Part shown: positions 21,101-62,918 of the stretch, piece by piece
Position numbering within the stretch: position 1 is the stretch's first letter
Layout of the letters: every line of letters begins with the position of its first letter
Assembly (NCBI GenBank): GCA_009885535.1
Contig: VFKL01000106.1
Coordinates: 83 to 64,082, forward strand
Direction of reading: 5' to 3'
DNA from: Chitinophagaceae bacterium
GTDB lineage: Bacteria > Bacteroidota > Bacteroidia > Chitinophagales > Chitinophagaceae
Length of the DNA: 64,000 nucleotides
The notes under the pieces: generated by a model
The model's database searches: none
What the model saw: only the letters and a program-made list of their open reading frames with translations
What the model was told of the DNA's origin: nothing
Translations under genes and position numbers: made by a program

Positions 21101-24100
21101 AACTTATCATTGTCAAATGCAGGTTCTTTACCTGGAGGCTTAACTTATCAATGGCAGAGCTCTAGTAATGGTACAACTTATAGTAATATACTTGGTGCTT
21201 CTAGTTTACCTACCTACTCTCAAACAAATATAACAGCTACAACTTGGTATCAATGTATTGCATCTTGTAGTGGAGTTCCAACTACATTTAATAATGTAAA
21301 AGTATTGGTTACCCCAAGACCAGTTATCACAGTTAGTTCAGCCACAAACATATGTGGATCGGGAGCTGTTGTATTAACTGCAAGTTCTTCGGTAGCAGGT
21401 GCTACAATCAGATGGTATTCAAATGCATCAGGTACAGCTTTAGTGTTTACCGGCGCCACATTTACAACACTAATTATTTCAACCAATACGACTTATTATG
21501 TAGAAGCTGTTTATGGTGATTGCGAAAGTGGCATATCGCCAATCGTTGCCATCGTAAATCCATTTCCTTCAAATATTGTTATCACTCCACAGGCAGATAC
21601 CATTTGCGTATCACCAAACATCGACAGTTTAAGAACAACCGGTGGTTTATTTGCAGATGGTTCGCAAGCACCAATAACTTGGAGTCCAATTACGCATTTG
21701 TATACAGATGTTGATGCTACAATTCCTTACACGGGTACCAGTGCAACAAAAGTTTATATTAAATCTACTGCAGCAAATAACACTGTTATAAACTATATCG
21801 CAACTGCCGGAACGGGATGTAACAAAATAGATACCTCTGTAATTACATTTAGAGATTTTACACCTACCGTATCCATTGCCATTGAGCGTCCTATTGGCGC
21901 AATTTGTCCAAGCGATACCATTAAATTTAGAGCTACTCCTGTAAATGGTGGTAATGTTGGTCAACCCGCAAGTTTCAAATTTTTCGTGAATGATAGTGCA
22001 ATTACTGCTAACTATAGTACAACTGATACCATACGATTCCCAGGAGCTTTAACTAGCTATAGATTAAACAATGGCGATATAGTAAAATGCGTAATGTTGG
22101 TTAATCCGTTTTATACAAATTGTGCTACTTCAAACCAGTTTGTAAGTAATGCTGTAACCATGTCCATTAATACAGTTGAGCGTGATAGCGTTTTATTAAG
22201 CACACCTTCTACAAGTATTTGTACAGGTACAAGTGTTACATTTACGGCAACACCTCAAGCAAATGGAGGTACAGCTCCTGAGTACGAATTTTTAGTGAAC
22301 GGAACTGTTGTAAGATCAAGATCTGCGGTTGCAACATTTACAACAACCCCAACCAATGGCCAAGTGGTAACAGTAAAAATGTATTCTAACAAACCTTGTG
22401 TAACGCCAGTACCTGCGGTTAGTTTGCCTATAACCATGACCGTTACACCAATAACAGCGATAAGTGTTGTATTAAATAGCTCTGTAGGTACTACATCTTG
22501 TACAGGTGTAAACGTTGAATATTTAGCAGTACCTTCTAATAGAACACCAACATCAACATATCAATTTTTCGTTAATAATATTTCTGTTCAAGGGCCTAAC
22601 ACAGACAGTACTTATGCTTATATTCCTGCGAATAATGATCAAATAAAAGTGGTTTTCAATTCAAACTTTTCGTCTTGTTTAACAGGTAATCCGGCTACAT
22701 CTAATATCATAACGATGACGGTTAGTAGCAGTACAGTTTCTTCAGTAACCCTTACACCTTCAACAGCAATTTGTAGTGGGGTATCTAAAACATTTACCGC
22801 AAATCCAACAGGTGGTGGTGTTGCGCCTTTGTATGAATTCTTGGTTGATGGAAGCAGCGTACAAGGCCCAAGTACAACAGCAACTTATTCTCGATCAGCA
22901 ACAGCCAATTATAGCATAGAAGTAAGAATGACGCCTGATGGTTGTGGTTTGCCTAATCCAGCTACTGCTACTTTAGCACAAGTCGTAAATCCAACCCCTC
23001 AAGGAAGTTTATCAGCAAATACAATTTGTACCGGAGGTACTGGCCAACTTACATACACATCAACAACAGGAACAGGGCCATTTAGTTTAGTGATTAATGG
23101 TGTTACATATAATAGTATCGCAAGTGGAACTCCGTTTAATGCAAGTGTGAATCCAACATCAACAACCCTTTATACATTGACATCAGTGACTGATGCAAAT
23201 GGTTGTAACCGTACAACAGGATTCACAACAGCAGCTGCAACTATTACAGTTAATACATCACCATCAGTATCAATAACGAATAATTCAAGTGGTGCAACAG
23301 TATTAACTTGTACACAAACTTCTATAAATTTAACGTCTACACCAAACGGAGCAGGATTCACCGTTTTGTGGAGTAATACATCAACTAATTCAACGCAATT
23401 TATTAATACTCCAGGTATTTACACAGCAACAGTTACCCAAACCAGCACAGGATGTTCGACAACTTCTGCAAATGTTGTTATCACACAAAATGCAAATGAA
23501 CCAACAGGGGCAGGATTGTCAGGAACTTATTTTGTTCCATCTGGTGGAGCATCTTGTAGAAACTTTGCAACTATCAGAAATGCAGTTGACACTTTAAATA
23601 AATATGGAGTTTCTGGTAATGTTATTATTAATGTTAATGGAGGATATACAGAAACTTTAATACGCAGATTGGATTTAGGAAGTGCTACTTTAAGTGCTAA
23701 CACTGCTTTGGGAAGAACAATTACTTTCGTTAAAAATGGAGTTGGTGCAAATCCGAAAATCACTGCTCATACAGGTGTATACACCAATCCTGGATCAACT
23801 ACAATTGATGGTATGTGGAGTTTAAGTGGTGTGGATAATGTAATTATTGATGGAATAGATTTACTTGATGGGAATACACTTAGTCCAACAACGATGATGG
23901 AATATGGTTATGGATTGTTTAAAGGTTATTCAACAAAATCAGCCACAGGTCCAAATGCAACTACAACAATAAATGTAACCGACACCGTTGGATTAAGGGT
24001 AGGATCAACTGTTTGGGTAATATCAGGAACAGGTTCATTTACATTGGGGACTACAATTTTAGCTTTTCCAAGTACAACAAGTTTTACAGTATCTGCAGCA

Positions 24101-27100
24101 CCATCAACATTGGCATCAAATACAGTGATTGGATATAGTGTGCCAAACGATGGTGCACAAAACAATACCATAAAAAATTGTGTGGTTACATTAAATAAAG
24201 CGAACAATGTAGGTGGTGCAATTCCTGTATTAACCGGATCTGTCGGAATCGCATCATATAATTCAACATCTACAGTTGCAAATACGGCATTAATACCAAC
24301 TGCAAAAGAAGGCGGAAACTCAAGAAACAAATTTCATACCAATACCATTTCAAACTGTAGCATAGGTATTGGATTGAGTGGATATACAGGTATAAATGCA
24401 GGACGTGATACGTTGAATGATGTAGGCGGTGCTTCCTTAGCTACTGGAAATACCATTACTAATTTTGGAGGTTCATTGTACGTAAATGAGGTAAATGGAA
24501 TTCGTTTAAGGGGACAGTTTGATGTGAATGCATCTTACAATACCATCAATAACAATAATGGTGCTACAGCTAATCCATCAGGTGGTGTTGTGAGAGGCAT
24601 TTATGGAGAATCTGGAGTTAGTGCCGATACAACAATTATTACATACAACAACATATCTATCAATAATGGAAGTGCTCAACAATCATTTGGAATAGATAAT
24701 ACAATTGGTAATGGAATTTCAAATGGCAATGGAGTAAATATAAGTTACAACACCGTTACAGGTACTAATAATTCTCAAACACTCGGTAATTTATATGCCA
24801 TTAATAATACTGCATCTGTTGCGAACTTAAACATAAGTAACAATAAAATTCAAGATTTCTCAATGAATGGTGCTGGAGAGTGGCGTGGTATTTATAATGG
24901 TGGTGCTTGTAATAATGTAATCATGAACTTTGATACCATACAGAACAATAATTTGAATAATATCGGCAACACTATAACAACTCAATTTATTTATTCTGCG
25001 GCTTTGACTGTCACATCTTTGAACGCTACATTTAATAATAATCAAATTCTTAATAATACAAAAGGTTGTGGAAATAATTCTTTGGTATATGGAATAAATT
25101 TCCAAGGAGCTTCATTGTGTAATGCAACAATGAATAATAATACAATCTCAAATAATACTTTAAACAATACAGGTACGGGAACAATAGATTATTCAGGATT
25201 TAATTTAGGTGGTGCATCAAGATATACGCTAGATAATAATACGGTATCCAATTTTGGTATTAATGTAAATGCCGCTTCTGCAGTTATTTTAAAAGTAAAT
25301 GGTATTAGATCTGAAGCTTCTTCTATATTGGATTCATTTGTGAACAACACCTTAACTCAATTGTATATCAAGGGATCTTCAACCTCAACAGGCCTAAATG
25401 AAATTAGAGGAATTAGTACAAATTCTGGTGCAGGGTCTAGATTTTATTTCAACAATAATATTAATACATTATACGCTAAAGCAGATTACACTGCTGTTAT
25501 TACAGGAATTAGAAATCAAGCTGGCTTAACTGTAAATATTTTAAAGAATAAAATTTATGGTTTATATCCAGGCCAAAGTGCAACAACCGGATCAACTGCA
25601 AAGGGTATAAATATTGTGAGTTTATCTGCTTCTTCAACAGCTAATATTTATAATAATTTCATTTCAATAGATTTAAGTACAGGTGCTCCTGCTGGGGCTT
25701 CAGGTACAGCTTTAAATAATTTAGATGGCATTAGAGGAATTGAATTGGCATCGACGATAATTAATGCTTCAAATATTAACGTGCATAACAACAGCATTCG
25801 TTTGGCTGGAAGTGGTACAACCAATTTTGGTTCAACGGGTATTTATCAAGCAAATAATGTATCATCCACAATTGGATTACTAAATTTAAAAGGTAATATC
25901 ATTAGCAACGAATGTACCAAACAAGGAACAGGATTAATAGCAGCGTTTAGAAGGAATTCATTGGCATTAAATAATTATTCAACCGCTTCAAATTACAATT
26001 CTTTTTATGCAGGTGCAGACACCACAGTTGGTAAATTATTTTTAGTAGATGGAACTACAAATTTCAATGGGAATATCGCTGGCTTACGTACACGCCTAGG
26101 TGCAGAATCGGGTTCAATTTCAGTGTTGCCAACATTTGTGGCTCCTGCAACTGGTGATTTACATATTACGCCTTGTGCGGGTAGTAATAGTAGTTTTGAA
26201 AATGCAGTAATTGGCACAGCTTTGTTTGCAACCGATTATGATGGAGATACTAGATTAGATCCATCCGACATTGGTGCTGATGAAATATCGAGTGGTGCGG
26301 GTAAAGTAAATGCAGATGCTAGTGTTTGTAGCGGAAGCAATGGAGCTACATTGACTTTAACTGGACAAGTTGGCGTTACGAGTATTACCAGATGGGAACA
26401 ATCTATTGATGGAGGAACTAACTGGACGACTATTGCAAATACAACTACAACTTACACGTATTCAAACTTAACTACAACCACTTTATTTAGAGCTATCGTA
26501 AATACAGCTTCATGCTCTAATGTAAGTTCTGGCGCGGCTACAATTACGGTTAACTCAGCTCCTTCAATAACTGCTCAGCCAAATACTGTTGCTCAAAGTA
26601 CTTGTTTGAATATTGCTTTTGCAACGCCAACCGTTTCGATAATTACATCAGCGGCTGGTCCTACATACCAATGGTTTAGCAATACAACAAACAGCAACGT
26701 TGGAGGAACATCAATTTCAAGTGCAAATACAGCATCTTACACATTACCAAACAATGTGGCTGGTATGGTTTATTATTATTGTACAGTTACTAGCGGTGTA
26801 TGTCCAAGTACAAGTAATGTATCAGCAGGAATGACGGTAAATGCATTGCCAACAATAACATTAACTGATAATATAGCTGATTCAGTTTGTTTTAGTAGCA
26901 TATCTCAAAATTCTGTTTTAGAATTTACAGGTACAACAAATGGTGCAAATCAATATAGCATTACTTGGAATGGTACTCCTACAAATACGTTTGCTGCTGT
27001 AACAAATGGAACTTTGGCAACATCACCAATCACAATAGTAGTGCCAGCAAGTGCTACTGCAAACACAACATTCACTGGAAATATTTCTGTAATAAATTCA

Positions 27101-30100
27101 GCAACGGGTTGTGTTAGTGTTGCTACAACACCATTTACTTTAAAAGTAAAATCATTGGTAAATATTGGAAATCCTATAACCACACCACAAACTACCTGTT
27201 TGGGTTCTACGTTTACGATTCCAACTTTAACGGTTTCTTCAACATCTCCAACACCAACATACCAATGGTATAGCAATACGGTAAATTCAAATATAGGAGG
27301 TGCAATTTTAGGGTCGACAAATGGGGCACAAACAGCCACCTATTCACCTCAATCAAATGTGGTGAGTACATTGTATTATTACAGCACAATTACAAGTAAT
27401 GGATGTATTGCAACAACAAATCCTTCAGGCTTATGGTCTGTAACAACTGGCCCTACTTCAGGAGCATTAAGTGGAACTTATTACATACCAACAACAGCTT
27501 TAAATGATTGCAAAGTATTCTTAACAATAGCAGCAGCCGTAAACTACTTAAATGTAAATGGTATTTCAGCTTCTGTAATATTTAAAGTAGCTCCAGGATA
27601 TACAGAAACTTTGAGCAGTACATTGGCATTAGGAAGTACAACTTTAAACAATACAACCTCTACAAAAACCATCCGTTTTGAAAAGAATGGAGCAGGTACA
27701 AATCCTTTGATTACGGGTTATACAGGTGGAACTACAACATCATCATCAACAATACCAGATGGTATATGGAGTTTGCGTGGCGTGGATTACGTTACCATCG
27801 ATGGTATTGACATTAGAGAAAATGCAAGTAACACAACTGCTGCTTCGCAAATGGAGTATGGATATGGTTTATTTAAATTAGGTGTGGCAGATGGTGCTCA
27901 AAATGATACGATTAAGAATTGTACCATCACGTTAAATAAAAACAACACTACTCCATCAACCAATTTCTTTAATGGTGCTACAGGTATTGCCATGACAAAC
28001 GCTACAGCTGATGCTGCAAATACTTTATTAACACCAAATAACGTTACAGGATCTAACTCCAATAATACATTTATATCAAACACAATCAGCAATGTAAACG
28101 TAGGAATTGGAATAATTGGTTTCGCGGCAAATGATCAAGTATCTTTTGCAGATGTAAACAATTTAGTAGGAGATACCATCACTTCAACAAAGGGGAATTC
28201 AATTACCAATTTGGGTGGAGGAACTACAGCAAACAATACAGAAGTTTCAGCAGGTGTTTTATTGAAAAATCAATTGAATGCTTTAGTGGGTTACAACACC
28301 ATTACAGGAGCTGGTCATAATGAAGATCAATATGGTGTTAAATCAGATAATTCGGTTGGTACGGGAAGTATTGTAATCAAACTAAACAACATCAGTATTA
28401 CAGGAGCTGGAGATAGAAAATATGCTGGTATTGAAAATAATACTGGAGGTGGAGCATCTTCTATAATCAACATTACAAACAATACGTTGAATGTAAAAAT
28501 TCCAAATGGGGTAACAACTACAGTTGCTGCATCAGTAACAGGAATTAAAAATGGCTCAACACTTACTCCAGGTACAATCAACATTAGTAACAATAGCTTT
28601 ACGAATAGTACAATAGCTGGAGTTGGGAAATGGGCAGGGATTTACAATACTACCAACACAACGGCTGTTACTGGTGTTATTAACATGAACAATAACACCA
28701 TAACTGGAAATACAATTTTAGCAACGGGTACATTTAATGGGTTACAATCTGATGCAAATACTTATGGTACTCAAACGATAAGTACCAACACAATTACCAA
28801 TAATTCAAAAACCATTTCTGGTGTTACTGAATTGAGTTGGTTGAGTCAGAAACCATCAAGTGTAACAAATTGCGGAACGTTAAATATTCAAAATAACTCC
28901 ATACAAAATAATGATGTTCTAGTTGCAAGTGGAAATGGAAGTAATGTGAATGTTTATGGAGTTTATTCTTTTGGTATAAAAACTGGATCTTTATTTAGTT
29001 TCAGTGCCAATAAAATTCGCAAACTGAGTTTGAAGGATATTAATTCTGATAAAACAGGTAAATTATGGGGCTTATTTACAAATTCTAACGTTGCAGCCAA
29101 CATAACAGAAACGGTAGTTGACAATAAAATAAGCAATTTGTATATTTCTGCTGCGGCTGGAAGTTCTGCCACACACACAATAATAGGGTTACAGCTTGGT
29201 AGTACATTACCTACAACAACTGCTAGAAATATAATCCAAAACAGAATCGATAGTTTTTATGTTAGAAACAACGGAGATGCTACACCTTTATATGCATCAA
29301 CAGTAACGGGTATTTACATTCCAACAGGAACTGGTAATCACGCGATTTATACAAATAAGATAGCCCATTTAGTTCCTTTTGGTTCTAATGGTATTGCACG
29401 TGGATTCTGGCTTGGAATAACTCCATCAAGTAGCTTACCAGTAAACATGTACAACAATATGATTGAATTGGATTTGACTCAAGCATTTGATGGAGCTTCT
29501 GCTACATCATTAAATAATACCGATGCCATAAGAGGTATTGATATAACTGGAGGTGTGGCAGGAACTCCTTATAATTTCACATTCAACACCATTAGAATTG
29601 GTGGTTCTGGTGGTGCTAACTTTGGTACCAGTGTTGTAGATATGAATGTAAATAATCCAACGTATACGTTTAAAAATAACGTGTTTGTAAATAAATCTAC
29701 TCCAGGTGCATCAGGAAATGTAGCGGTGTTAAGGGCTGTAGCTAGTCAATTAACAGTCGGCACTAAATATAGCACTTCATCAAGTAATAACGCATATTAC
29801 GCTGGAGTTGCATCATCATCTAATTATTTGTTTACTGATGGAACCAATAATTTACAAACATTGGCTTTATTACAATCAAGTTCTAGGGAATTACTTTCTG
29901 TAGAAAATGCAGATCCTATATTTATTCGTTCTTCAGATAACCAGGATAGTTTGCACATGAATACAAGTTCAAATTGTGCTTTCAATGGTACTGGTGCTGT
30001 TGGTACTGGTTATACAACCGATATTGATGGAACTACAAGATTATCGCCTCCAGATATGGGCGCTGATGAGTATAATACAACAGGTGGTGGAGTAGGTGAG

Positions 30101-32362
30101 TGGGCTGGTGTAAATACCAATTGGAATGATGCAGCAAACTGGTGTGGAGCTGTGCCAACTGCTAATACTGATGTTACCATACCAAATGGTAGATCAAGTT
30201 ATCCAATTATTACTTCAGCAAATCCTGCAGCTAATACAAAAAATTTAACCATTGGAAATACTACTGCATCGGTAACGATATCAAGCGGTGGTAAGTTGAA
30301 TATTTATGGCAATATCAGCAGTCCAAGTATAGGTAAATTGATTGCTACATTGGGTACAGTTGAAATGGCTGGTTCTACAGCTCAAACCATTCCAGCTAAT
30401 TTATTTGCCAACAACAATTTGAGAAATCTAGTGATAAATAATTCGAGTGTATCTCTTGGAGGTCAATTGAATTTATTGAATAAGTTATCATTCGTTGGTG
30501 GTAGTAAAACGTTTGCAACAGGTAATTTCTTAACCTTAAAATCAAACGATTCTTTAACGGCAAGTGTGGCGGATATCACTAATGGTGGTGTAAATACAGG
30601 AAATACAATTACCAATAGTGTAACCGTAGAAAGATATATTGATAATATCAAAAGTGGTACCCGTTCATTAAAAGCATGGCGTTTATTGTCGATGCCAACA
30701 ACGCATAATTTGCAAACAATCAAACAAGCATGGCAAGAAAATGGGGATCCATCTGGCGTGTTTAACCCAAATCCTGGATTTGGTGCACAAATCATTTCAA
30801 GATTTGGAGTAGATAATGCTGGAGCTCAAGCTTTAGGATTCGATTCTTACAATGCCAATGGCGGAACGTTGAAAACATTCAATATTGCTACGCAAGCTTG
30901 GGATGAGGTGCCTAATACAATTTCTAATTTTGATGCGCAGAAACCTTATATCGTATTCGTGAGAGGTAGTAGAGCGAAAACATTGTTTAGTGATACGCCA
31001 GATACAACGGTGTTGAGGGAGCGTGGCGCATTGAATTTGGGTGATTTTGTGGTGACGCCAAGTTTACCAACTACATCAAATAAATTTGCTTCAATTGTTA
31101 ATCCTTATGCAAGTGCTATAAGACTTCCAGCTACACGCATCGGGTTTACTGATTTCTATTATTTATACGACCCACGCTTAGGAGCAAGTGGTGGTTGGGT
31201 AACAATAAGTGGAGATGGCACAAGTGCTAATTTTACTGGAGGAAGTTATGGAAACAACAACTACAACATTCAATCTGGTCAAGGGTTCTTTATGCTAACC
31301 AATGCTGCAGGAGCTTCAATGACCATCAAAGAAACGGATAAAGTGGATGGAAGTGCTTCTGTTCAAAGAGAAAACAGAAATCAACAGAAATTCTACACCA
31401 GATTGTATAAAGTACAAAATGGTACAGCAGACTTGTATGATGGGGTGTTAAATAGATTTGATGAAGGCTACAGCAATGATGTAGATGATAACGATGCAAC
31501 GAAATTCACAAACACAACTGAGAATTTTGCAATAGTTAAAAACAACAAATTGATATCAATCGAATCAAGAAAAGCATTGACAGAAAACGATACCATTTTC
31601 TACAAAATGAATCAAATGCGTGTAGCCAATTATCGCTTCGAATTCATTCCTGAAAACATCGAAACATTTAATCTACAAGCTTACTTAGAAGATAAATACA
31701 CCAGTACGTTAACACCAGTAAGCATGTCGGAAAGGACTACATTTGATTTTGCAGTGAGTACTAACGTTGGTGCATATGCGTCTGATCGTTTCAGAATCAT
31801 ATTCAAACAACTTCGTCCATTGCCTGTAACTTTTGTAGATGTAAAAGCCATCAAACAAAAAGAGCAAATCAATGTTACTTGGAAAGTAGAAAACGAAATC
31901 AACATTCGTGAATATGCGGTAGAGAAATCTGCTAATGGTGTAAACTTTGCAAAAGTTGGAACCGTGATGGCAACAGGATTGAACGAATATGCACACATTG
32001 ATGAATCTCCTTTTGTTGGTAATAATTTCTACCGTATTCGCAGCGTTGGTGTAGCAGGAGAGATCAGTTACAGTAAAATTGTAAAAGTTGCTTTCGAAGC
32101 AGAACCAATGATTTCAATTTATCCAAACCCAATAAAATCGGATAGAAAAGCAACCATAAGTTTTAAAAACGTAACTGCTGGTCGTTATACTTTAAAACTA
32201 ACCAACAATTTGGGTCAAGTATTGATGCGTAAAGCGATACAGCATGATGGTATTACAACACAATATGATTTTACATTAAGCAAATCGATATTAAACGGCA
32301 GCTATACTTTAGAAATAATTGGGCAAGACAATAAAAAAACTAGCTTGAAGATTTTGTTTTAA
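18185..32362 (+). CDS. giant T9SS-secreted surface protein (adhesin-like; CUB-like, Ig-like and parallel beta-helix modules)
   Basis: This is a single uninterrupted 4725-aa ORF. The signal peptide is '...LLFFVAIAFTTNTNAQ'. Three CUB-like modules (e.g. 'CSATFYDAGGP...YDGLMIYNG...ISC') alternate with Ig-like 'YQWQSS..G.SW..I.GATS' modules. Next comes a run of ~95-aa Ig-like repeats. Two long Asn/Thr/Gly-rich beta-helix blocks carry 'NTISN..IGIG' type rungs. The C-terminal ~84 aa, 'ISIYPNPIKSDRKATISFKNV...YTLEIIGQDNKKTSLKILF', form a type-A T9SS sorting domain. The true start may be the second Met at 18218. Confidence 0.9.
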   Translation: MRKFYLTAARKMNVTNKNAVKKKLHSFLMLLLFFVAIAFTTNTNAQTAAQYSFSASNGGYSEISGDPILIDNGNSDDGFANGFPIGFDFNFGGVTYNEFNVSTNGWITLGNNGDNNITNSGLTNNFATIPKTPLIAALWDDIEISDIGRDISFKSAGGVLTVQFTNIQWRYLATVSEAVINFQIKLYEATGAVEFVYDPIPGGVLNSPSASIGIATASGVYLSVNGTGATPTASSTTSTNNLSALPVRGQTYTFLPPPPCSGTPVPGRTFASVNSVCASSGATVNLSFETFALATTFQWEQSINGGGTWSNVPGLGTNSTYVATPTATTQYRCRVTCTSSGQSGNSTPETVVYDNTCIVMPVNGDVTTCSATFYDAGGPTANYGAFEVRQLTINPSTTGANVKVVFNSFNTESRYDGLMIYNGRTVNPANLISSGLPVGIDPTTAPAGSFHGTTSPGTITSTDPTGALTFVFRSDNIIQSTGWNATISCILPCDATPTPGATLATSTFVCNGFTTTLSLTNNNFAGVTYQWQSSVDNSSWSDISGATSSTFTAAPTSNTYFRCEVICLAAPTIPAFSTSIQIETSACDEVLMPSDGSTLPVNTCSALFTDGGGTRADYINNSNGTVTFRPATAGTKIRATFTSFSTENNYDGLMIYNGNSSGSPLLSSGLPAGFNATTAPAGSYYGTLSPGVVSSTAADGSLTFVFKSDGTQVSSGWVATISCYVDNSCTGTPNPGATLASNTTVCYGGTTTLSTANTINATNILYQWQSSPNGLSWTDITGATSTTYVVSSLTTSTYYRATVRCTSVGGGVTSSSPNVQVVVDPTCINMPTSATLATCNASFYDNGGASANYTENQNRTFTVTPTTAGSVNGPFSRVVFSSFALDPSDTLKVYDGTNTSVLLGAYTTNPGTITSSNTTNGGLTFVFKSNSTLNDAGWAGTISCYTPTLCSGAPPLGDVLASIDTVCANGSTNLSLSNAGSLPGGLTYQWQSSSNGTTYSNILGASSLPTYSQTNITATTWYQCIASCSGVPTTFNNVKVLVTPRPVITVSSATNICGSGAVVLTASSSVAGATIRWYSNASGTALVFTGATFTTLIISTNTTYYVEAVYGDCESGISPIVAIVNPFPSNIVITPQADTICVSPNIDSLRTTGGLFADGSQAPITWSPITHLYTDVDATIPYTGTSATKVYIKSTAANNTVINYIATAGTGCNKIDTSVITFRDFTPTVSIAIERPIGAICPSDTIKFRATPVNGGNVGQPASFKFFVNDSAITANYSTTDTIRFPGALTSYRLNNGDIVKCVMLVNPFYTNCATSNQFVSNAVTMSINTVERDSVLLSTPSTSICTGTSVTFTATPQANGGTAPEYEFLVNGTVVRSRSAVATFTTTPTNGQVVTVKMYSNKPCVTPVPAVSLPITMTVTPITAISVVLNSSVGTTSCTGVNVEYLAVPSNRTPTSTYQFFVNNISVQGPNTDSTYAYIPANNDQIKVVFNSNFSSCLTGNPATSNIITMTVSSSTVSSVTLTPSTAICSGVSKTFTANPTGGGVAPLYEFLVDGSSVQGPSTTATYSRSATANYSIEVRMTPDGCGLPNPATATLAQVVNPTPQGSLSANTICTGGTGQLTYTSTTGTGPFSLVINGVTYNSIASGTPFNASVNPTSTTLYTLTSVTDANGCNRTTGFTTAAATITVNTSPSVSITNNSSGATVLTCTQTSINLTSTPNGAGFTVLWSNTSTNSTQFINTPGIYTATVTQTSTGCSTTSANVVITQNANEPTGAGLSGTYFVPSGGASCRNFATIRNAVDTLNKYGVSGNVIINVNGGYTETLIRRLDLGSATLSANTALGRTITFVKNGVGANPKITAHTGVYTNPGSTTIDGMWSLSGVDNVIIDGIDLLDGNTLSPTTMMEYGYGLFKGYSTKSATGPNATTTINVTDTVGLRVGSTVWVISGTGSFTLGTTILAFPSTTSFTVSAAPSTLASNTVIGYSVPNDGAQNNTIKNCVVTLNKANNVGGAIPVLTGSVGIASYNSTSTVANTALIPTAKEGGNSRNKFHTNTISNCSIGIGLSGYTGINAGRDTLNDVGGASLATGNTITNFGGSLYVNEVNGIRLRGQFDVNASYNTINNNNGATANPSGGVVRGIYGESGVSADTTIITYNNISINNGSAQQSFGIDNTIGNGISNGNGVNISYNTVTGTNNSQTLGNLYAINNTASVANLNISNNKIQDFSMNGAGEWRGIYNGGACNNVIMNFDTIQNNNLNNIGNTITTQFIYSAALTVTSLNATFNNNQILNNTKGCGNNSLVYGINFQGASLCNATMNNNTISNNTLNNTGTGTIDYSGFNLGGASRYTLDNNTVSNFGINVNAASAVILKVNGIRSEASSILDSFVNNTLTQLYIKGSSTSTGLNEIRGISTNSGAGSRFYFNNNINTLYAKADYTAVITGIRNQAGLTVNILKNKIYGLYPGQSATTGSTAKGINIVSLSASSTANIYNNFISIDLSTGAPAGASGTALNNLDGIRGIELASTIINASNINVHNNSIRLAGSGTTNFGSTGIYQANNVSSTIGLLNLKGNIISNECTKQGTGLIAAFRRNSLALNNYSTASNYNSFYAGADTTVGKLFLVDGTTNFNGNIAGLRTRLGAESGSISVLPTFVAPATGDLHITPCAGSNSSFENAVIGTALFATDYDGDTRLDPSDIGADEISSGAGKVNADASVCSGSNGATLTLTGQVGVTSITRWEQSIDGGTNWTTIANTTTTYTYSNLTTTTLFRAIVNTASCSNVSSGAATITVNSAPSITAQPNTVAQSTCLNIAFATPTVSIITSAAGPTYQWFSNTTNSNVGGTSISSANTASYTLPNNVAGMVYYYCTVTSGVCPSTSNVSAGMTVNALPTITLTDNIADSVCFSSISQNSVLEFTGTTNGANQYSITWNGTPTNTFAAVTNGTLATSPITIVVPASATANTTFTGNISVINSATGCVSVATTPFTLKVKSLVNIGNPITTPQTTCLGSTFTIPTLTVSSTSPTPTYQWYSNTVNSNIGGAILGSTNGAQTATYSPQSNVVSTLYYYSTITSNGCIATTNPSGLWSVTTGPTSGALSGTYYIPTTALNDCKVFLTIAAAVNYLNVNGISASVIFKVAPGYTETLSSTLALGSTTLNNTTSTKTIRFEKNGAGTNPLITGYTGGTTTSSSTIPDGIWSLRGVDYVTIDGIDIRENASNTTAASQMEYGYGLFKLGVADGAQNDTIKNCTITLNKNNTTPSTNFFNGATGIAMTNATADAANTLLTPNNVTGSNSNNTFISNTISNVNVGIGIIGFAANDQVSFADVNNLVGDTITSTKGNSITNLGGGTTANNTEVSAGVLLKNQLNALVGYNTITGAGHNEDQYGVKSDNSVGTGSIVIKLNNISITGAGDRKYAGIENNTGGGASSIINITNNTLNVKIPNGVTTTVAASVTGIKNGSTLTPGTINISNNSFTNSTIAGVGKWAGIYNTTNTTAVTGVINMNNNTITGNTILATGTFNGLQSDANTYGTQTISTNTITNNSKTISGVTELSWLSQKPSSVTNCGTLNIQNNSIQNNDVLVASGNGSNVNVYGVYSFGIKTGSLFSFSANKIRKLSLKDINSDKTGKLWGLFTNSNVAANITETVVDNKISNLYISAAAGSSATHTIIGLQLGSTLPTTTARNIIQNRIDSFYVRNNGDATPLYASTVTGIYIPTGTGNHAIYTNKIAHLVPFGSNGIARGFWLGITPSSSLPVNMYNNMIELDLTQAFDGASATSLNNTDAIRGIDITGGVAGTPYNFTFNTIRIGGSGGANFGTSVVDMNVNNPTYTFKNNVFVNKSTPGASGNVAVLRAVASQLTVGTKYSTSSSNNAYYAGVASSSNYLFTDGTNNLQTLALLQSSSRELLSVENADPIFIRSSDNQDSLHMNTSSNCAFNGTGAVGTGYTTDIDGTTRLSPPDMGADEYNTTGGGVGEWAGVNTNWNDAANWCGAVPTANTDVTIPNGRSSYPIITSANPAANTKNLTIGNTTASVTISSGGKLNIYGNISSPSIGKLIATLGTVEMAGSTAQTIPANLFANNNLRNLVINNSSVSLGGQLNLLNKLSFVGGSKTFATGNFLTLKSNDSLTASVADITNGGVNTGNTITNSVTVERYIDNIKSGTRSLKAWRLLSMPTTHNLQTIKQAWQENGDPSGVFNPNPGFGAQIISRFGVDNAGAQALGFDSYNANGGTLKTFNIATQAWDEVPNTISNFDAQKPYIVFVRGSRAKTLFSDTPDTTVLRERGALNLGDFVVTPSLPTTSNKFASIVNPYASAIRLPATRIGFTDFYYLYDPRLGASGGWVTISGDGTSANFTGGSYGNNNYNIQSGQGFFMLTNAAGASMTIKETDKVDGSASVQRENRNQQKFYTRLYKVQNGTADLYDGVLNRFDEGYSNDVDDNDATKFTNTTENFAIVKNNKLISIESRKALTENDTIFYKMNQMRVANYRFEFIPENIETFNLQAYLEDKYTSTLTPVSMSERTTFDFAVSTNVGAYASDRFRIIFKQLRPLPVTFVDVKAIKQKEQINVTWKVENEINIREYAVEKSANGVNFAKVGTVMATGLNEYAHIDESPFVGNNFYRIRSVGVAGEISYSKIVKVAFEAEPMISIYPNPIKSDRKATISFKNVTAGRYTLKLTNNLGQVLMRKAIQHDGITTQYDFTLSKSILNGSYTLEIIGQDNKKTSLKILF
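23522..26290 (+). repeat. internal protein-level duplication, beta-helix block 1 (aa 1780-2702)
   Basis: The block begins 'GTYFVPSGGASCRNFATIRNAVDTLNKYGVSGNVIINVNGGYTETL', continues through '...DGMWSLSGVDNVIIDGIDL...MEYGYGLFKG' and ends 'TDYDGDTRLDPSDIGADEIS'. It is collinear with block 2. Confidence 0.8.
27473..30076 (+). repeat. internal protein-level duplication, beta-helix block 2 (aa 3097-3964)
   Basis: The block begins 'GTYYIPTTALNDCKVFLTIAAAVNYLNVNGISASVIFKVAPGYTETL', continues through '...DGIWSLRGVDYVTIDGIDI...MEYGYGLFKLG' and ends 'TDIDGTTRLSPPDMGADEYN'. The two blocks are diverged at the DNA level, so the duplication is old. Confidence 0.8.
32108..32359 (+). other. T9SS C-terminal sorting domain (type A) of the giant protein
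   Basis: The last ~84 aa show the 'YPNP', 'ISF...' and 'G.Y.L.L.N..GQ....K' pattern and a terminal beta-strand, 'KTSLKILF'. Confidence 0.85.
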
Positions 32363-32392
32363 ATTAATAACACTTAAATTTGTGCACAAGTA

Positions 32393-32611
32393 ATGAAAAA
32401 TATGAAAATTAAATTAAGAACAGCATTTGTTGGAGTTGCTTTACTTGTGTTAACTATTGGTTTTAATTTCAATTCAATAGCTCAAGATCCGCCACCACCA
32501 GATGGCTGCATAGATCCATTAGATCCTGCTTGTCCTATAGACGGAGGTTTAGTTTTTCTAATAGCAGCAGGTGTTGGAATTGCTGCAAAAAATGCCAGAA
32601 GAAAAAATTAA
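32393..32611 (+). CDS. 72-aa mini-protein: signal peptide plus a PEP-CTERM-like tripartite sorting signal (PIDGG, TM helix, basic tail)
   Basis: Sequence MKNMKIKLRTAFVGVALLVLTIGFNFNSIAQ / DPPPPDGCIDPLDPAC / PIDGG-LVFLIAAGVGIAA-KNARRKN. The gene starts 30 nt after the giant gene's stop with no terminator between them. A strong terminator follows it. Confidence 0.6.
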   Translation: MKNMKIKLRTAFVGVALLVLTIGFNFNSIAQDPPPPDGCIDPLDPACPIDGGLVFLIAAGVGIAAKNARRKN

Positions 32612-32636
32612 GTAATTTCTAAAATAAGATTTAAAT

Positions 32637-32667
32637 AAAAGACATGGAGAAATTCATGTCTTTTTTT
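32637..32667 (+). terminator. Rho-independent terminator after the giant-gene/mini-gene pair
   Basis: The 10-bp stem aaaagacatg (32637-32646) / catgtctttt (32655-32664) encloses the loop gagaaatt and runs into a T-tract. Confidence 0.65.
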
Positions 32668-32738
32668 ATGAATTTAAAATCAAAAAATAATTGATCGTTT
32701 TTTATAAAACATTAAAAACATTTGTTTCAATACCTATA

Positions 32739-36822: not shown

Positions 36823-37791
36823 ATGAATCTATCAGATAAAATATATGTAGCAGGTCACAACGGCTTAGTAGGGAATTCAATTTTTAAATTCCTTCAAAAT
36901 GAAGGATTTATAAATATTATTACAAAAAGTTCCAAAGAACTAGACCTAAGAAATAAAGCTTTAGTGGATGAATTTTTTAGAATTGAAAAACCCCAGTTTG
37001 TATTTTTAGCTGCTGCAAAAGTTGGTGGAATTCATGCAAATAATACTTTCCCTGCAGATTTTTACTACGACAATATTTGCATTCAAAATAATGTAATTCA
37101 TGCAGCCTATGTCAATAAAGTTGAAAAACTATTATTTTTAGGAAGCAGTTGTATTTATCCCAAAAATTCACCACAACCCATTTGTGAATCCTATTTATTA
37201 AATGGATATTTAGAACCTACAAATGAAGCTTATGCCATTGCAAAATTAGCAGGAATAAAAATGTGTCAAGCTTATCGTCAGCAATATGGATGCAATTTCA
37301 TCAGTGTTATGCCCCCTAATTTATATGGGCCTGGAGATAATTATGATTTAGATAACGCTCATGTTTTACCCGCTTTATTGAGAAAGTTTCATGAGGCAAA
37401 AATAAATAATTCAGAAACCGTTACCGTTTGGGGATCGGGCACGCCCAAAAGAGAATTTTTATTTGTAGAAGATATGGCATTGGCTTGTTATTTTTTAATG
37501 GAAAATTATAATTCGAATGCCATCATAAATGTTGGTACAGGCATAGATCATACCATTTTACAACTGGCAGAAATTGCAAAAAAAGTTACCGGGTTTACTG
37601 GTCAAATTATTTTAGATGCCAATAAGCCAGATGGTACTCCACGCAAACTACTTATGGTAGATAAAATAAATGCTTTAGGTTGGTTTGCTAAAATGGATTT
37701 GGAAACGGGATTATCCAAAACGTATGAAGATTTTAAAACGAATTACGAATATTATATTTCAAAGAAACAATTTTCATCTCAAGGCGCATAA
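36823..37791 (+). CDS. fcl: GDP-L-fucose synthase
   Basis: 322 aa. 'IYVAGHNGLVGNSI', 'AAAKVGGIHANNTFPADFYYDN', 'LGSSCIYPK' and 'YAIAKLAG'. Confidence 0.85.
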   Translation: MNLSDKIYVAGHNGLVGNSIFKFLQNEGFINIITKSSKELDLRNKALVDEFFRIEKPQFVFLAAAKVGGIHANNTFPADFYYDNICIQNNVIHAAYVNKVEKLLFLGSSCIYPKNSPQPICESYLLNGYLEPTNEAYAIAKLAGIKMCQAYRQQYGCNFISVMPPNLYGPGDNYDLDNAHVLPALLRKFHEAKINNSETVTVWGSGTPKREFLFVEDMALACYFLMENYNSNAIINVGTGIDHTILQLAEIAKKVTGFTGQIILDANKPDGTPRKLLMVDKINALGWFAKMDLETGLSKTYEDFKTNYEYYISKKQFSSQGA

Positions 37792-39585
37792 ATGTGTAGA
37801 ATAGCCGGTATCGTTAATTTCAATTGGAGTTCTGAAAAGAATCAGCAAACAGTTGAAAATATGTGCAACTTTCTAAAGCATGGTGGCCCAGATGATGGTG
37901 GCATTTTCACCTCAGAAAGTGGTAATTTGGTTTTAGGCAACAGAAGATTGGCTTTAGTTGATTTATCTCAAGCAGGTCATCAACCCATGCATTATCAAAA
38001 TCAGTTTACCATTACGTATAATGGAGAATTGTATAATTATCTTGAATTAAAAAATCAACTGATTCAATTAGGACATCAGTTTTCAAATCATACCGATACA
38101 GAAGTTATACTTGCTGCATTTGCAGAATGGAATGTGCATGCTTTTGAAAAATTTAATGGCATGTATGCATTTGCGTTATATGACCAATCAAACGAGATGC
38201 TTTATGTGGTACGTGATGTGGTAGGTATAAAACCACTATATTATTCAGTTGATGATAATCAACTCGTTTTTGCTTCTGAAGTAAATGCGTTTAATGCGGT
38301 AGATTTTAATTGGACGAAAAACGAACATTGGCCTGTTTTTTTAATGGCTTATGGACATATCCCAGAACCATACACCACATTTAAAGAAGTTTCCACATTA
38401 CATAAAGGGAGTTTTATAAAGTATGATTTAAAGCATAGAAAACATTCGATACAATCTTATTCCTTTTATAGTTTTAGTCAAGATTTAAATGTTGGTGATA
38501 ATTTAAAAAGCACAATAAGAAATCAAATAGAAAATGGAGTAAAATCTCAACTTGTAGCAGATGCTCCAGTTGGTGTTTTTTTAAGTGGCGGAATTGATTC
38601 AAGCATCTTGGCATTAATTGCGGATCAACATAAAAAAGAAGGCATTCAATCATTATCCATCTACTTTAACGAAAACGAATATTCTGAAAAGAAATATCAG
38701 GATATTGTGATGTCGAAATTGAAAGGCGAAAAGCATCAGTTTTTATTATCAAAAAATGATTTTGAAAATCATCTTCCTCAAGTTTTACAATCTATGGATT
38801 TGCCAAGTTGTGATGGCATAAATACTTGGTTTATTAGCAAACATGCCAAAGCACTTGGATTGAAAGCCGTTTTATCTGGCATTGGTGCGGATGAATTATT
38901 TGGCGGTTATCCTTCTTTTCAGCGAATGAGTTTGGCGCGTAAATTATCTTTGACACCCAATTTTCTGCTAAATATTTTTAAGAAAAATACCAAAAAGCCA
39001 TTTAATAGAATTTCTTATTTAGGAATGGATGGGATAAAAGGAATGTATCTTTTTATGCGCGGGCATTACAACGTTCATGAAATTGCCAACTATTTAGAAG
39101 CTGAAGAACGTGAAATTTGGAACATCATTAATGATAATCCAATGATGGGAGATATAAAACAAATGCCCACTCAAAATCAAGCGAGTTGGATGGAGTTTAA
39201 CATGTACATGCAAAACCAGCTTTTGAAAGATGCTGACGTGATGAGTATGGCACATGGCGTTGAAATCAGGGTGCCGTTTTTAGATCAAGCGCTTGTAAAA
39301 ACAATGTTTAGTATAAACGCAAATGATAAGTTTTCAGGTAAGTTGCCCAAGCAATTGCTAATAGATTCATGTAAAGATATTTTGCCAGAACAAGTTTGGA
39401 ATCGACCAAAAATGGGATTCAGTTTTCCTTTCTCAACTTGGATGAAAAACAATAGTTATTTAGAGGACTTGATGCAATACAGCAATAAAAATACAAAGGC
39501 GTATTATAACGATTTCAAACAAGGAACTTTACATTGGTCTCAAATGATGTCGTTGATGATTATGAAAACGAGGAATGAAGCATAA
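37792..39585 (+). CDS. asparagine synthase-family glutamine amidotransferase, paralog 1
   Basis: 597 aa. Ntn nucleophile 'MCRIAGI', 'YNGELYNY' and PP-loop 'FLSGGIDSS'. The ATG abuts the fcl stop. Confidence 0.85.
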   Translation: MCRIAGIVNFNWSSEKNQQTVENMCNFLKHGGPDDGGIFTSESGNLVLGNRRLALVDLSQAGHQPMHYQNQFTITYNGELYNYLELKNQLIQLGHQFSNHTDTEVILAAFAEWNVHAFEKFNGMYAFALYDQSNEMLYVVRDVVGIKPLYYSVDDNQLVFASEVNAFNAVDFNWTKNEHWPVFLMAYGHIPEPYTTFKEVSTLHKGSFIKYDLKHRKHSIQSYSFYSFSQDLNVGDNLKSTIRNQIENGVKSQLVADAPVGVFLSGGIDSSILALIADQHKKEGIQSLSIYFNENEYSEKKYQDIVMSKLKGEKHQFLLSKNDFENHLPQVLQSMDLPSCDGINTWFISKHAKALGLKAVLSGIGADELFGGYPSFQRMSLARKLSLTPNFLLNIFKKNTKKPFNRISYLGMDGIKGMYLFMRGHYNVHEIANYLEAEEREIWNIINDNPMMGDIKQMPTQNQASWMEFNMYMQNQLLKDADVMSMAHGVEIRVPFLDQALVKTMFSINANDKFSGKLPKQLLIDSCKDILPEQVWNRPKMGFSFPFSTWMKNNSYLEDLMQYSNKNTKAYYNDFKQGTLHWSQMMSLMIMKTRNEA

Positions 39586-40687
39586 AAAAATTTTATTTTT
39601 AAGTTTAAGGATATTTTCTGCAACAGGTGGCATTGAAAAAGTTTGCAGGATTTTGGGAAAAGCATTATTTGAAACTACATTTAGTGGGAATTGTAGTTTG
39701 GAGATTTATTCATCTCATGATACAACGAATCAATCAAGTCATAATGTGTATTTTCCTTCAGATTATTTTTCGGGTTTTGGAAATAACAGATTCAAGTTTT
39801 TAAATGCAGCCTTTTTAAATGGAATAAAATCGGAAGTCGTGATATTGAGTCATATCAATCTATTGCCGATTGGTTGGTTGATTAAACGATTTTCTCCAAA
39901 AACAAAATTGGTTATGTTAGCACATGGAATTGAAGTGTGGTCATTACCGTTAGGGATAAAAAAAAAGATGCTCAATGCTTGCGATGAGATTTTATGTGTA
40001 AGTCAATTTACAAAAGATGAAATGATCAAATTGCATGGAGTTGTGGCAAAAAAATATTCGGTATTAAATAATTGTTTAGATCCATTTTTGCCAGTTTTAG
40101 CAAAACAAAATGACTCAATAGATTTAAGAAGCAAATACGGTTTTTCTCCATTTGGTAAGATACTTTTTACATTAACGCGAATGGATGCTACGGAACGGTA
40201 TAAGGGTTACGATAGGGTATTACAAGCCATGGCATTATTAATAAATGAAATGCCGGATTTGAAATACATCATTGGTGGTAGTTATGATAAAATAGAAAAA
40301 AACAAAATTGATGAATTGATTGCAGAATTGGGTTTAAAAGATAATGTAGTGATTACTGGGTTTATTCCTGATGAAGATTTGAATGATTATTTTTTGATGT
40401 CGGATTTATATGTAATGCCCAGTTACAATGAAGGGTTTGGGATTGTATTTATAGAAGCCATGTATTACGGACTTCCTGTAATTGCTGGGAATAAAGATGG
40501 TTCAGTGGATGCATTGCTAAATGGAAAACTTGGAACCCTTATAGATCCAATGGATATAGAATCTTTGAAAAATGCAATCAAAGACAATTTTGGAATTTCA
40601 AAAAATAAAAAAGTAGACAATGAGGTTTTGATGGGAAATTTTGGATACGATGTATACAAGGAAAAGCTAAGTGTAATTTTAAATTAA
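39575..40687 (+). CDS. glycosyltransferase family 4
   Basis: 370 aa. 'PSYNEGFGIVFIEAMYYGLPVIAGNKDGSVDAL' is the GT4 E-x7-E region. It overlaps the upstream gene by 11 nt. Confidence 0.8.
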   Translation: MKHKKILFLSLRIFSATGGIEKVCRILGKALFETTFSGNCSLEIYSSHDTTNQSSHNVYFPSDYFSGFGNNRFKFLNAAFLNGIKSEVVILSHINLLPIGWLIKRFSPKTKLVMLAHGIEVWSLPLGIKKKMLNACDEILCVSQFTKDEMIKLHGVVAKKYSVLNNCLDPFLPVLAKQNDSIDLRSKYGFSPFGKILFTLTRMDATERYKGYDRVLQAMALLINEMPDLKYIIGGSYDKIEKNKIDELIAELGLKDNVVITGFIPDEDLNDYFLMSDLYVMPSYNEGFGIVFIEAMYYGLPVIAGNKDGSVDALLNGKLGTLIDPMDIESLKNAIKDNFGISKNKKVDNEVLMGNFGYDVYKEKLSVILN

Positions 40688-40690
40688 CAA

Positions 40691-41533
40691 ATGAAGAATA
40701 CAAAATCTAATAATGAAGATTGGGATTTGGTTCTAGAATCAGGCAGAGCCGATAAACATTATTGGAAAGACTTATGGCGTTATAGAGAGTTATTTTATAT
40801 TCTCAGTTGGAGAGATATTAAAGTAAGATATAAACAAACCGTATTGGGTGCAGCATGGAGCATTATTAGGCCCTTACTTACAACAATTATATTTACAATA
40901 GTATTTAGTAAAATAGCCAAACTAGATAATCCAGGAAATGCACCATATGCATTAATGGTGTTTGCGGGGATGTTGCCTTGGCAGTTTTTTAGTAATGCAT
41001 TAAGTGAGTCAAGTAATAGCTTAATTGGCAATGCAAACCTTATCACTAAAGTATATTTCCCTAGACTCATTATTCCTGCAAGCTCAGTAATAACAAGCTT
41101 GGTCGATTTTGCCATTTCATTTTTGATATTAATTGTCATGATGTTTTGGTATCAATACATACCATCTTGGCATATTGTTTTTTTACCCATATTTATATTG
41201 CTTGCGTTTATGTGTGCTTTTGGCGTGGGATTATACCTCACTGCTGTAAATGTTAAGTATCGCGATTTTCGCTATATCATTCCTTTCATCATTCAATTCG
41301 GATTATATATTACACCAGTTGGTTTTAGCAGTTCGGTCATTGGAGAAAAGTGGAAATTTTTATATGCTTTAAATCCAATGGTAGGTATAATAGATGGTTT
41401 TAGATGGTGTATTTTAGGAGATCCAATGAAATGGAGTTCATTTATTTTTTCGTTTAGTGTGATAATTATTTTCTTAATGATAGGGATAACTTATTTTAGA
41501 AAAATGGAAAAGTCATTTGCAGATAACATTTAA
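40691..41533 (+). CDS. wzm: polysaccharide ABC exporter permease (Wzm, ABC-2 type)
   Basis: 280 aa with six hydrophobic helices. The N-terminal 'YRELFYILSWRDIKVRYKQTVLGAAWSIIRPLL' is typical of O-antigen/teichoic-acid export permeases. Confidence 0.8.
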   Translation: MKNTKSNNEDWDLVLESGRADKHYWKDLWRYRELFYILSWRDIKVRYKQTVLGAAWSIIRPLLTTIIFTIVFSKIAKLDNPGNAPYALMVFAGMLPWQFFSNALSESSNSLIGNANLITKVYFPRLIIPASSVITSLVDFAISFLILIVMMFWYQYIPSWHIVFLPIFILLAFMCAFGVGLYLTAVNVKYRDFRYIIPFIIQFGLYITPVGFSSSVIGEKWKFLYALNPMVGIIDGFRWCILGDPMKWSSFIFSFSVIIIFLMIGITYFRKMEKSFADNI

Positions 41534-41545
41534 TTTTTTAGTGCA

Positions 41546-43407: not shown

Positions 43408-43459
43408 ATAAATCATTTTTTTTAGTATAATCTATTAAAACATAAAATAAAAAATAATA

Positions 43460-45573: not shown

Positions 45574-45584
45574 AATCCAGTGTT

Positions 45585-46730: not shown

Positions 46731-46790
46731 TTTTTCTTTAGCTTGATTTTTTTGGAGCGTGAAAAAAATGTATAAATATTATCAGTTATC

Positions 46791-48390: not shown

Positions 48391-48393
48391 TTA

Positions 48394-49542: not shown

Positions 49543-49547
49543 ATAAA

Positions 49548-50402: not shown

Positions 50403-50446
50403 ATTAATACTTTCTTTCCTTCCAATATCCAAAAAATCCATAAACC

Positions 50447-52270: not shown

Positions 52271-52281
52271 TAATTATTGCT

Positions 52282-55670: not shown

Positions 55671-55678
55671 AGAAATTA

Positions 55679-57303: not shown

Positions 57304-57323
57304 AATTTAATACTAAGTTTTTA

Positions 57324-62141: not shown

Positions 62142-62160
62142 AGCAGTTTATCATTAAGAA

Positions 62161-62910: not shown

Positions 62911-62918
62911 TTTTTAAG

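Follow-up and report, generated by a model that had tools for sequence, protein, structure and literature searches.

A conserved PID-CTERM mini-protein encoded behind a type IX secretion cargo gene in Chitinophagaceae, a probable passenger-less exosortase substrate

The stretch of DNA analyzed here, referred to below as the window, comprises 64,000 nucleotides of a Chitinophagaceae bacterium (assembly GCA_009885535.1, contig VFKL01000106.1) with a GC content of 32.6%, and contains a short open reading frame (ORF; 32393..32611, forward strand) encoding a mini-protein of 72 residues, with an ATG start and a stop codon at 32609-32611. The ORF starts 30 nt past the stop of a 4,725-residue ORF (18185..32362, forward strand), and its product is composed, in order, of MKNMKIKLRTAFVGVALLVLTIGFNFNSIA, QDPPPPDGCIDPLDPAC, PIDGG, LVFLIAAGVGIAA and KNARRKN. 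The first segment (residues 1–30, 32393..32482) reads as a signal peptide, in which an n-region, an h-region and a predicted signal peptidase I cut between SIA and Q were recognized by heuristic rules and not by a trained predictor. It is followed by a 17-residue, Pro/Asp-rich exposed linker (residues 31–47, 32483..32533) whose two cysteines, C38 and C47, probably form a disulfide loop, by the signature motif PIDGG (residues 48–52, 32534..32548), and by a Gly/Ala-rich transmembrane segment assigned from hydropathy and alignment (L53–A65, with a hydropathy peak at residues 46–64) that leads into the basic tail KNARRKN (residues 66–72; segment and tail together 32549..32608). Motif, hydrophobic segment and basic cluster form a tripartite C-terminal layout, and a six-frame scan found this type of tail only once in the window. 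The first-pass annotation of this DNA had described the position of the ORF and each of these elements, and all of them were found to be correct. Two other identities were rejected for the mini-protein: that of a lipoprotein, the lipobox Cys being absent, and that of an O-glycosylation acceptor, the mature part containing no D-S/T-hydrophobic sequon.

The 'PID-CTERM' sorting-domain model to which the first-pass annotation had alluded does exist. The mini-protein matches the NCBIfam entry NF046080 ('PID-CTERM protein-sorting domain') over residues 48–71 with 30.8 bits, above the cut-off of 26, the tail alone reaches 34.1 bits against the same model, and the invariant PIDGG aligns to model positions 2–6. 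Up to an E-value of 10 this was the sole NCBIfam match, the PEP-CTERM models giving none; a sub-threshold match to CD20, obtained with a Pfam scan set that lacked PF28310, was judged meaningless. The Pfam entry PF28310 (PID_CTERM) is precomputed on 120 of the 120 homologs listed from the first search, and some relatives already bear the NCBI name 'PID-CTERM protein-sorting domain-containing protein'. By these profile matches, together with the conservation described below, the mini-protein belongs to the PID-CTERM family as a genuine and conserved member. As this family is already curated, the finding is less novel than the first-pass annotation had assumed. The family is apparently unpublished, since PID-CTERM, XrtX and XrtY are absent from the papers in the literature searched, where these names and 'exosortase X/Y' gave nothing relevant.

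Orthologs of the mini-ORF are abundant in related genomes. We found 152 close homologs of 47–99 residues, and HMMER, run exhaustively against 1.84 billion cluster representatives, yielded 1,827 matches (50% identity clusters) at E ≤ 0.001, the best 150 of which are all 53–117 residues long. A profile built on members that lack the cysteines retrieved at least 7,256 clusters at 90% identity, those listed being all 66–102 residues in length. Signal peptide and tripartite layout are kept across the family. In the branch of the window (alignment A1), residues D41, P42, L43, P45, A46, C47, P48, I49, D50, G51, G52, L56, A58 and A59 do not vary, and G60, G62 and A65 vary little, while the constant part of the wider family consists of P-[IVLF]-D-G-G (PIDGG itself in 116 of 147 representatives), a helix of the type LSLLIAAGVGYGxKK and a charged tail. 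The cysteine pair is missing in about half of the wider-family representatives; these Cys-less members score 47–51 bits on NF046080 and therefore represent the core of the model, and the form found in the window (C-x7-C before PID, short tail KNARRKN) is a divergent branch. The linkers of the family have a median length of 13 residues and consist of P (27%), D (24%) and G (10%), with K, R, S and Y each at about 1% or less. Gln is the commonest predicted +1 residue after the signal peptide, which fits the Bacteroidetes Q-rule (PMC5837995).

Between two distant loci (L001 and L003), the 28 core codons show 22 synonymous as against 2 non-synonymous differences, a pattern indicative of strong purifying selection on the core of the mini-protein. 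This bears on the most sceptical explanation of the ORF, namely that it is a chance reading frame or belongs to an RNA-only region such as the 3' untranslated region or terminator of the giant gene. It is indeed very short, and the surrounding DNA is AT-rich, with a huge gene ending shortly before it, but the conservation pattern effectively refutes such an origin, thousands of homologs carry a signal peptide and the invariant motif, Rfam families give zero matches in the window, and the gene has a promoter box and a terminator of its own. We regard this explanation as extremely improbable.

The near-absence of a passenger domain, which the first-pass annotation had singled out, was borne out as a fact but not as a peculiarity of this gene, since, to judge from the lengths of its members, it is a rule for the whole family. 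No large protein with a PID tail was seen in the window, in related loci totalling about 1 Mb, or in the top 150 of the 1,827 representatives; the absence of long PID-tail proteins is not thereby proven, because 1,677 representatives lie outside these 150 and short tails on long proteins score below threshold.

Some relatives depart from the common pattern. A 57-residue Cys-less mini-protein scoring 40.6 bits on PID_CTERM is encoded at L078:9932-10105 in a Flavobacteriia metagenome-assembled genome (MAG; JABXHW010000004.1); this locus is an outlier both in taxonomy and in context, having neither an upstream gene with a type IX secretion system (T9SS) tail nor polysaccharide genes nearby. Second PID-type mini genes (L062:9935-10159, L067:10001-10228, L012:3560-3829 and L050:9641-9898) occur in genomes that also bear the canonical locus. 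They lie amid runs of paralogous lipoproteins of about 600 residues with CarboxypepD_reg and Ig-like domains and a conserved C-terminal NITEYG...AGNF...FRxxR, and their cores are degenerate (PIDDG, LLIATGIYIG); of the two that were scored against NF046080, that of L062 fails (19.2 bits) and that of L067 narrowly passes (29.3 bits).

The 30-nt gap before the mini gene contains the box TAAATTTG (32375..32382), which starts 18 nt before the ATG and matches TAnnTTTG, the -7 box of the Bacteroidota sigma-A consensus spanning positions -12 to -5 (PMC9723704), with a possible -33 TTTG further upstream (32353-32356). Of 73 unique mini genes, 54 have such a box in the 60 nt preceding the ATG (expectation, 2.5%), its position peaking at -25 to -28, and we consider TAAATTTG a putative promoter of the mini gene. 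Downstream, the terminator noted in the first-pass annotation is a hairpin followed by a T-run (32634..32671; 13-bp arms 32634-32646 and 32655-32667) with a folding energy of -16.3 kcal/mol (z = -3.5 against shuffles), although it escaped a simple consensus terminator scanner. A hairpin of -8 kcal/mol or below just before a T-run follows 54 of the 73 unique mini genes, compared with 6% of control windows, and its position is kept in related loci while the stem sequences differ. With a promoter box and terminator motifs of its own, the mini gene would thus form a self-contained transcription unit behind the cargo gene.

A palindrome, CCCACGGTTT/AAACCGTGGG, was observed at 17421-17440, 17572-17607 and 32771-32802, two of these copies standing within the roughly 900 nt that precede the giant gene and the third separating the mini terminator from wza (4 matches of its arms, where chance predicts 0.04). 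A lineage-specific operator common to both transcription units is one possible explanation, a small element resembling repetitive extragenic palindromes another. As the palindrome is missing from 87 of 87 related loci, it falls outside the conserved anatomy of the system.

The giant ORF upstream encodes a secreted protein with Ig_7 and CUB-like domains, and its last 130 residues match TIGR04183, the T9SS type A C-terminal sorting domain, with 34.7 bits (cut-off 23), in agreement with the first description of this gene as T9SS cargo; a Pfam scan of the whole protein recovers Ig_7 and CUB only and misses the T9SS tail. We examined the C-terminal 110 residues of the gene ending just before each mini gene (mode of the gap, 36–47 nt) and obtained a TIGR04183 match (E ≤ 0.001) for 53 of 60 unique upstream genes. 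Among other gene-like ORFs of the same loci, 12 of 556 were positive with a local hidden Markov model (HMM), several of these being upstream neighbors that the gap filter had passed over. Most of the 53 positives come from one orthologous locus type and are not independent. The pairing also exists beyond this exopolysaccharide (EPS) locus type, to which the isolate Ferruginibacter sp. SUN002 belongs: it occurs without polysaccharide genes in L082, L041 and L059, and as a cargo–mini–exosortase arrangement in L084. In L086, two mini genes (L086:642-863 and L086:4261-4467) are part of tandem T9SS-tail/PID_CTERM pairs with gaps of 18 and 12 nt, which points to one mini gene per cargo gene. L078, where an upstream gene bearing the T9SS C-terminal domain (CTD) is absent, and the second-copy loci L012, L050, L062 and L067 are exceptions. 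The first-pass annotation had used the T9SS gene as a landmark only, yet no other feature of the PID-CTERM family is as constant as this pairing with a cargo gene. The pairing is new with respect to the literature searched, in which T9SS and exosortases appear together in general papers only. The giant gene has a long intergenic region in front of it, which is in turn directly preceded by a gene for a histidine kinase of 1,247 residues (13531-17274), a possible regulator of the locus.

An exosortase-family gene had been proposed at 59802-60392 (forward strand) and as the source of the processing enzyme, and the analysis supports both proposals. Its 196-residue product matches TIGR04178 with 34.5 bits (cut-off 23), and C98, R139, H159 and H160 are invariant in 21 homologs, which matches the Cys/Arg/His catalytic triad proposed in a preprint for the exosortase protease family. 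No solved structure is related to it by sequence, and a fold search with an AlphaFold2 model (mean confidence, pLDDT, 82.6) found no solved relative, the best Foldseek E-value being 1.3. Its assignment to a named subfamily was rejected in three cases: XrtY (NF046083; 108.5 bits, cut-off 160), XrtX (NF046081; 59.6 bits, cut-off 170) and XrtF (TIGR04128; 30.4 bits, cut-off 90). Ten PID-linked exosortases that were tested behave alike (97–128 bits on XrtY and 43–65 bits on XrtX), and these scores define a clade nearest XrtY without a named model. NCBIfam release 20 contains no curated equivalog model for this clade; NCBI and JGI name its members 'exosortase/archaeosortase family protein' only, and many clusters have no Pfam label.

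The link between this enzyme and the mini-protein comes from gene arrangement. In the window and in four other long contigs, the mini gene and the exosortase gene stand on the same strand at opposite ends of one conserved polysaccharide locus, the exosortase being located 27.2 kb downstream in the window, 39.5 kb in contig_1629, 27.3 kb in k141_57363, 33.5 kb in CANFUJ010000002.1 and 31.6 kb in RJUB01000125.1 (isolate Ferruginibacter sp. HRS2-29). In the compact locus L084/L085, the order is T9SS cargo (1,199 residues), mini gene and exosortase, the latter being the next gene after a gap of 102 nt; the adjacent exosortase of L084 is 32% identical to that of the window and shows the same NCBIfam profile, which places it in the same clade. 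Moreover, homologs of the mini-protein and of the exosortase show the same two identity tiers, and about 1.3 Mb of related loci revealed no second candidate substrate for the co-located exosortase. From synteny, the product of 59802-60392 is a well-supported partner of the mini-protein. One may instead suppose that the mini-protein is processed by another sortase whose gene lies in a different part of the genome, such as a true XrtX, and that 59802-60392 has a different role in polysaccharide assembly. The accession of PID_CTERM (NF046080) directly precedes that of XrtX (NF046081), a hint of curator pairing that consists of accession numbers only, the window exosortase falls below the cut-offs of both XrtX and XrtY, and some mini genes have no exosortase within 10 kb. 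Yet every PID-linked exosortase examined, including the adjacent one, belongs to the same clade nearest XrtY, with low XrtX scores, and the identity tiers of the two proteins run parallel. Judged from the window and these loci, processing by an enzyme encoded elsewhere is quite improbable.

The region between the mini gene and the exosortase gene is filled with polysaccharide genes, all on the forward strand. NCBIfam matches identify a Wza-type export protein (32935-33744), a Wzc-type tyrosine autokinase with a GY-repeat tail, GYGYGYGYGYGYGYAYG (33760-36192), and a UpxY/NusG-type antiterminator (36260-36766). They are followed by sugar-nucleotide, glycosyltransferase (GT) and export genes (36823..58700), including by family matches a GDP-fucose-synthase-like gene, two AsnB-type amidotransferases, a Wzm/Wzt ABC transporter, a WecE-type aminotransferase, acetyl- and methyltransferases, and several GTs. 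The WecE-type 4-amino-sugar transaminase scores above its own cut-off, and the second-best match of both AsnB-type proteins is the XrtA/PEP-CTERM amidotransferase. A 475-residue membrane protein with about 10 hydrophobic segments (57273-58700) has zero Pfam or NCBIfam matches; it has orthologs in related loci, again as the second gene before the exosortase, one of which is labelled MBOAT, and it may act in the system as a polymerase, ligase or acyltransferase. A GT4 glycosyltransferase (58631..59812), whose weak best match is XYAG1 (NF046085; 73 bits, cut-off 400), directly precedes and overlaps the exosortase gene, a position also kept in L006, L007, L079 and L080. The distal end (60414..63656) comprises, again by family matches, a NodU-like carbamoyltransferase, a GT2 and a CpsB-type PHP tyrosine phosphatase, a trio that follows the exosortase in the same four loci as well. 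The phosphatase gene (62919-63656) is the last of the locus and lies about 27 kb from that of the Wzc kinase, its likely partner, so that the pair brackets the whole cluster.

Scanning of a genome collection (185,579 species genomes) recovered 70 loci, almost all from Chitinophagaceae/Chitinophagales (e.g., Ferruginibacter, Niastella and Ginsengibacter), and including two Sphingobacteriales MAGs, one Flavobacteriia MAG and one cultured isolate, Ferruginibacter sp. HRS2-29. This distribution, too, would most likely place the window in the Chitinophagaceae, as a member with low GC. The gene order of related loci is that of the window, namely giant, mini, Wza, Wzc-like (808–810 residues), UpxY/NusG, epimerase, AsnB, GT4, Wzm and Wzt, with a conserved distal block made of the polytopic membrane protein (about 470 residues), GT4, exosortase, carbamoyltransferase, GT2 and CpsB phosphatase. 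Of 62 evaluable loci, 49 have a homolog of the giant in front of the mini gene, and Wza lies downstream in 48 of 60, several of the misses being ORF-boundary artefacts. This shared order marks the unit of about 45 kb from the giant adhesin gene to cpsB as one conserved system.

Taken together, these observations make it probable that the mini-protein is a dedicated, passenger-less exosortase substrate. In the pathway that we envisage, the mini gene would be transcribed from its own promoter to its own terminator, as suggested by the motifs found there. The pre-protein would be exported by Sec and cut by signal peptidase I between SIA and Q, and the new N-terminal Gln would probably be cyclized, as the Bacteroidetes Q-rule implies. 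The resulting 42-residue product would be held in the inner membrane by its C-terminal helix, with KNARRKN on the cytoplasmic side and approximately 22 acidic, proline-rich residues facing the periplasm, probably with a Cys38–Cys47 disulfide. The exosortase 59802-60392, paired with it by synteny, would recognize PIDGG, the presumed recognition and cleavage site by analogy with other sorting signals, together with the conserved helix, and cut near PID. The new C-terminus of a peptide of about 17–20 residues may then be transferred, through a thioester intermediate, to an amine-bearing acceptor, a chemistry modelled on archaeosortase A and rhombosortase. The first-pass annotation had suggested a glycan or lipid acceptor or anchor as the role of the peptide. 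Since Ser, Thr, Lys and Tyr are nearly absent from the peptide and a blocked N-terminus is probable, it would be a poor side-chain acceptor, and any linkage would have to be made through its C-terminus. The leading candidate for the acceptor is the amino-sugar-containing polysaccharide of the locus itself, or a lipid; the former is plausible given that the locus resembles XrtA-type EPS loci and encodes a WecE-type transaminase, and a similar acceptor has been the subject of speculation by Veith et al. for exosortase systems generally (PMC7468200). Mini-protein, exosortase and the upstream T9SS giant adhesin would probably build one surface or matrix structure.

Several points weigh against this reading. 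Cleavage, its site and the acceptor are all inferred from analogous systems, the co-occurrence with an exosortase rests on six contig types, and L082 and L086 have no exosortase within 10 kb. A curated rule that joins PID-CTERM to an exosortase is absent, because the clade fails every named NCBIfam exosortase model. Furthermore, most members carry a conserved charged tail of 12–20 residues (KKAYDxRKK) and a very conserved GxGxG-type helix, which together exceed the needs of a disposable sorting signal and would also fit a stable membrane subunit. Finally, each genome has one or few PID-CTERM proteins, none with a passenger, whereas classical sorting signals are found on many proteins.

Several of the same features suit a different explanation, according to which the mini-protein is a stable, uncleaved single-pass inner-membrane subunit or regulator that partners the exosortase, Wza/Wzc or the T9SS cargo and acts through its helix and cytoplasmic tail. 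The helix contains small-xxx-small packing motifs (LIAAGxGxGA), a passenger domain was never seen in a family of at least 1,827 clusters (best 150 inspected), and XrtF, another Bacteroidota exosortase, has a dedicated small 'system-associated' partner protein (PMC10936215); the conserved tail and the low copy number point in the same direction. Against it, the invariant P-I-D-G-G just before the helix mirrors the cleavage-site motifs PEP, PGF and GlyGly, the curated models class the mini-protein as a sorting domain, and the co-located exosortase would be left without any other substrate candidate in the related loci. We therefore consider a stable subunit unlikely, if still worthy of attention, and retain the exosortase substrate as the preferred interpretation.

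A more tentative extension of the substrate interpretation, to which we would give a low probability, is an anchoring pathway in which the exosortase puts the acidic peptide on a lipid or amino-sugar polysaccharide, the conjugate serving as an anchor, linker or docking site for the T9SS adhesin. The proposal comes from gene pairing only. If true, it would represent a gene-encoded counterpart of the linking sugar of Porphyromonas anionic lipopolysaccharide (A-LPS), and it would explain why each cargo gene has its own mini gene, including the tandem pairs of L086. The peptide is unlikely to be itself the amine acceptor of PorU, because its N-terminus is likely pyroglutamate and its linker is free of Lys.

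Exosortases are widespread, and in Bacteroidota their substrates and chemistry are essentially uncharted; according to work on Flavobacterium johnsoniae published in 2024, substrates for the exosortase of this species have yet to be identified (PMC10936215). In this respect the PID-CTERM system is both tractable and under-studied: with about 40 residues after the signal peptide and no passenger, the mini-protein is suited to mass-spectrometric mapping of the cleavage site and the attached moiety, and at least two cultured Ferruginibacter isolates (HRS2-29 and SUN002) carry the locus. The pairing of mini gene and cargo gene points to a possible link between exosortase and T9SS/PorU sorting, which have so far been studied separately. 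For genome annotation, the mini-ORF is real and should be called, and the clade of its partner exosortase awaits a named model. The family-wide absence of a passenger, the coupling to T9SS cargo and the nameless exosortase clade are new with respect to the literature searched.

Comparison with known systems helps to situate these proteins. Within the PID-CTERM family (NF046080/PF28310), the window protein passes the cut-off and has P-I-D-G-G, the transmembrane helix and the basic cluster, but belongs to the Cys-pair branch, with its 30.8 bits as against the 47–51 bits of the core Cys-less members. Concerning the enzyme, XrtY and the glycosyltransferase XYAG1 are the best-scoring named relatives, and the GT-then-exosortase arrangement is common to both systems; in every PID-linked locus tested, however, the scores are too low (exosortase, 97–128 bits with a cut-off of 160; GT, 73–89 bits with a cut-off of 400), and by this measure the PID-linked exosortases are a sister clade of XrtY and not members of it. 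The logic of motif, helix and basic tail is shared with PGF-CTERM/archaeosortase A and GlyGly-CTERM/rhombosortase. In these systems, loss of the helix and addition of a lipid- or ethanolamine-containing moiety at the new C-terminus have been demonstrated experimentally (PMC7157517, PMC6219818), and a thioester intermediate has been proposed for archaeosortase A (PMC7157517). These signals are borne by large passengers (the S-layer glycoprotein and the VesB protease), unlike the PID tail, and rhombosortase is a serine protease unrelated to exosortases. With the T9SS, the system shares the type A CTD of the upstream giant. PorU of P. gingivalis cuts off this domain and joins the cargo protein to a linking sugar that is modified with an amino acid (Veith et al. 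2020, PMC7468200), and AsnB-like and related genes are common to the PorU/A-LPS pathway and exosortase loci (PMC7468200). The mini-protein, on the other hand, lacks a CTD and is no T9SS substrate itself, its tie to the cargo being known from gene pairing alone.

The closest functional parallel is offered by the PEP-CTERM/XrtA (EpsH) EPS systems described by Haft et al. in 2006 (PMC1569441). Both have a tripartite C-terminal signal behind a Sec signal peptide and an exosortase inside a polysaccharide locus with Wza, Wzc, AsnB-type amidotransferases and many GTs, and in both it is proposed that cleavage occurs near the motif and that the new C-terminus is joined to some compound. Whereas PEP-CTERM substrates are many per genome, the PID system has one or few passenger-less ones, with PID(GG) in place of PEP, and its exosortase is a short form of about 190 residues, found in Bacteroidota and tied to a T9SS cargo gene. 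The PID system thus works like the PEP-CTERM/exosortase EPS systems, without being a member of them.

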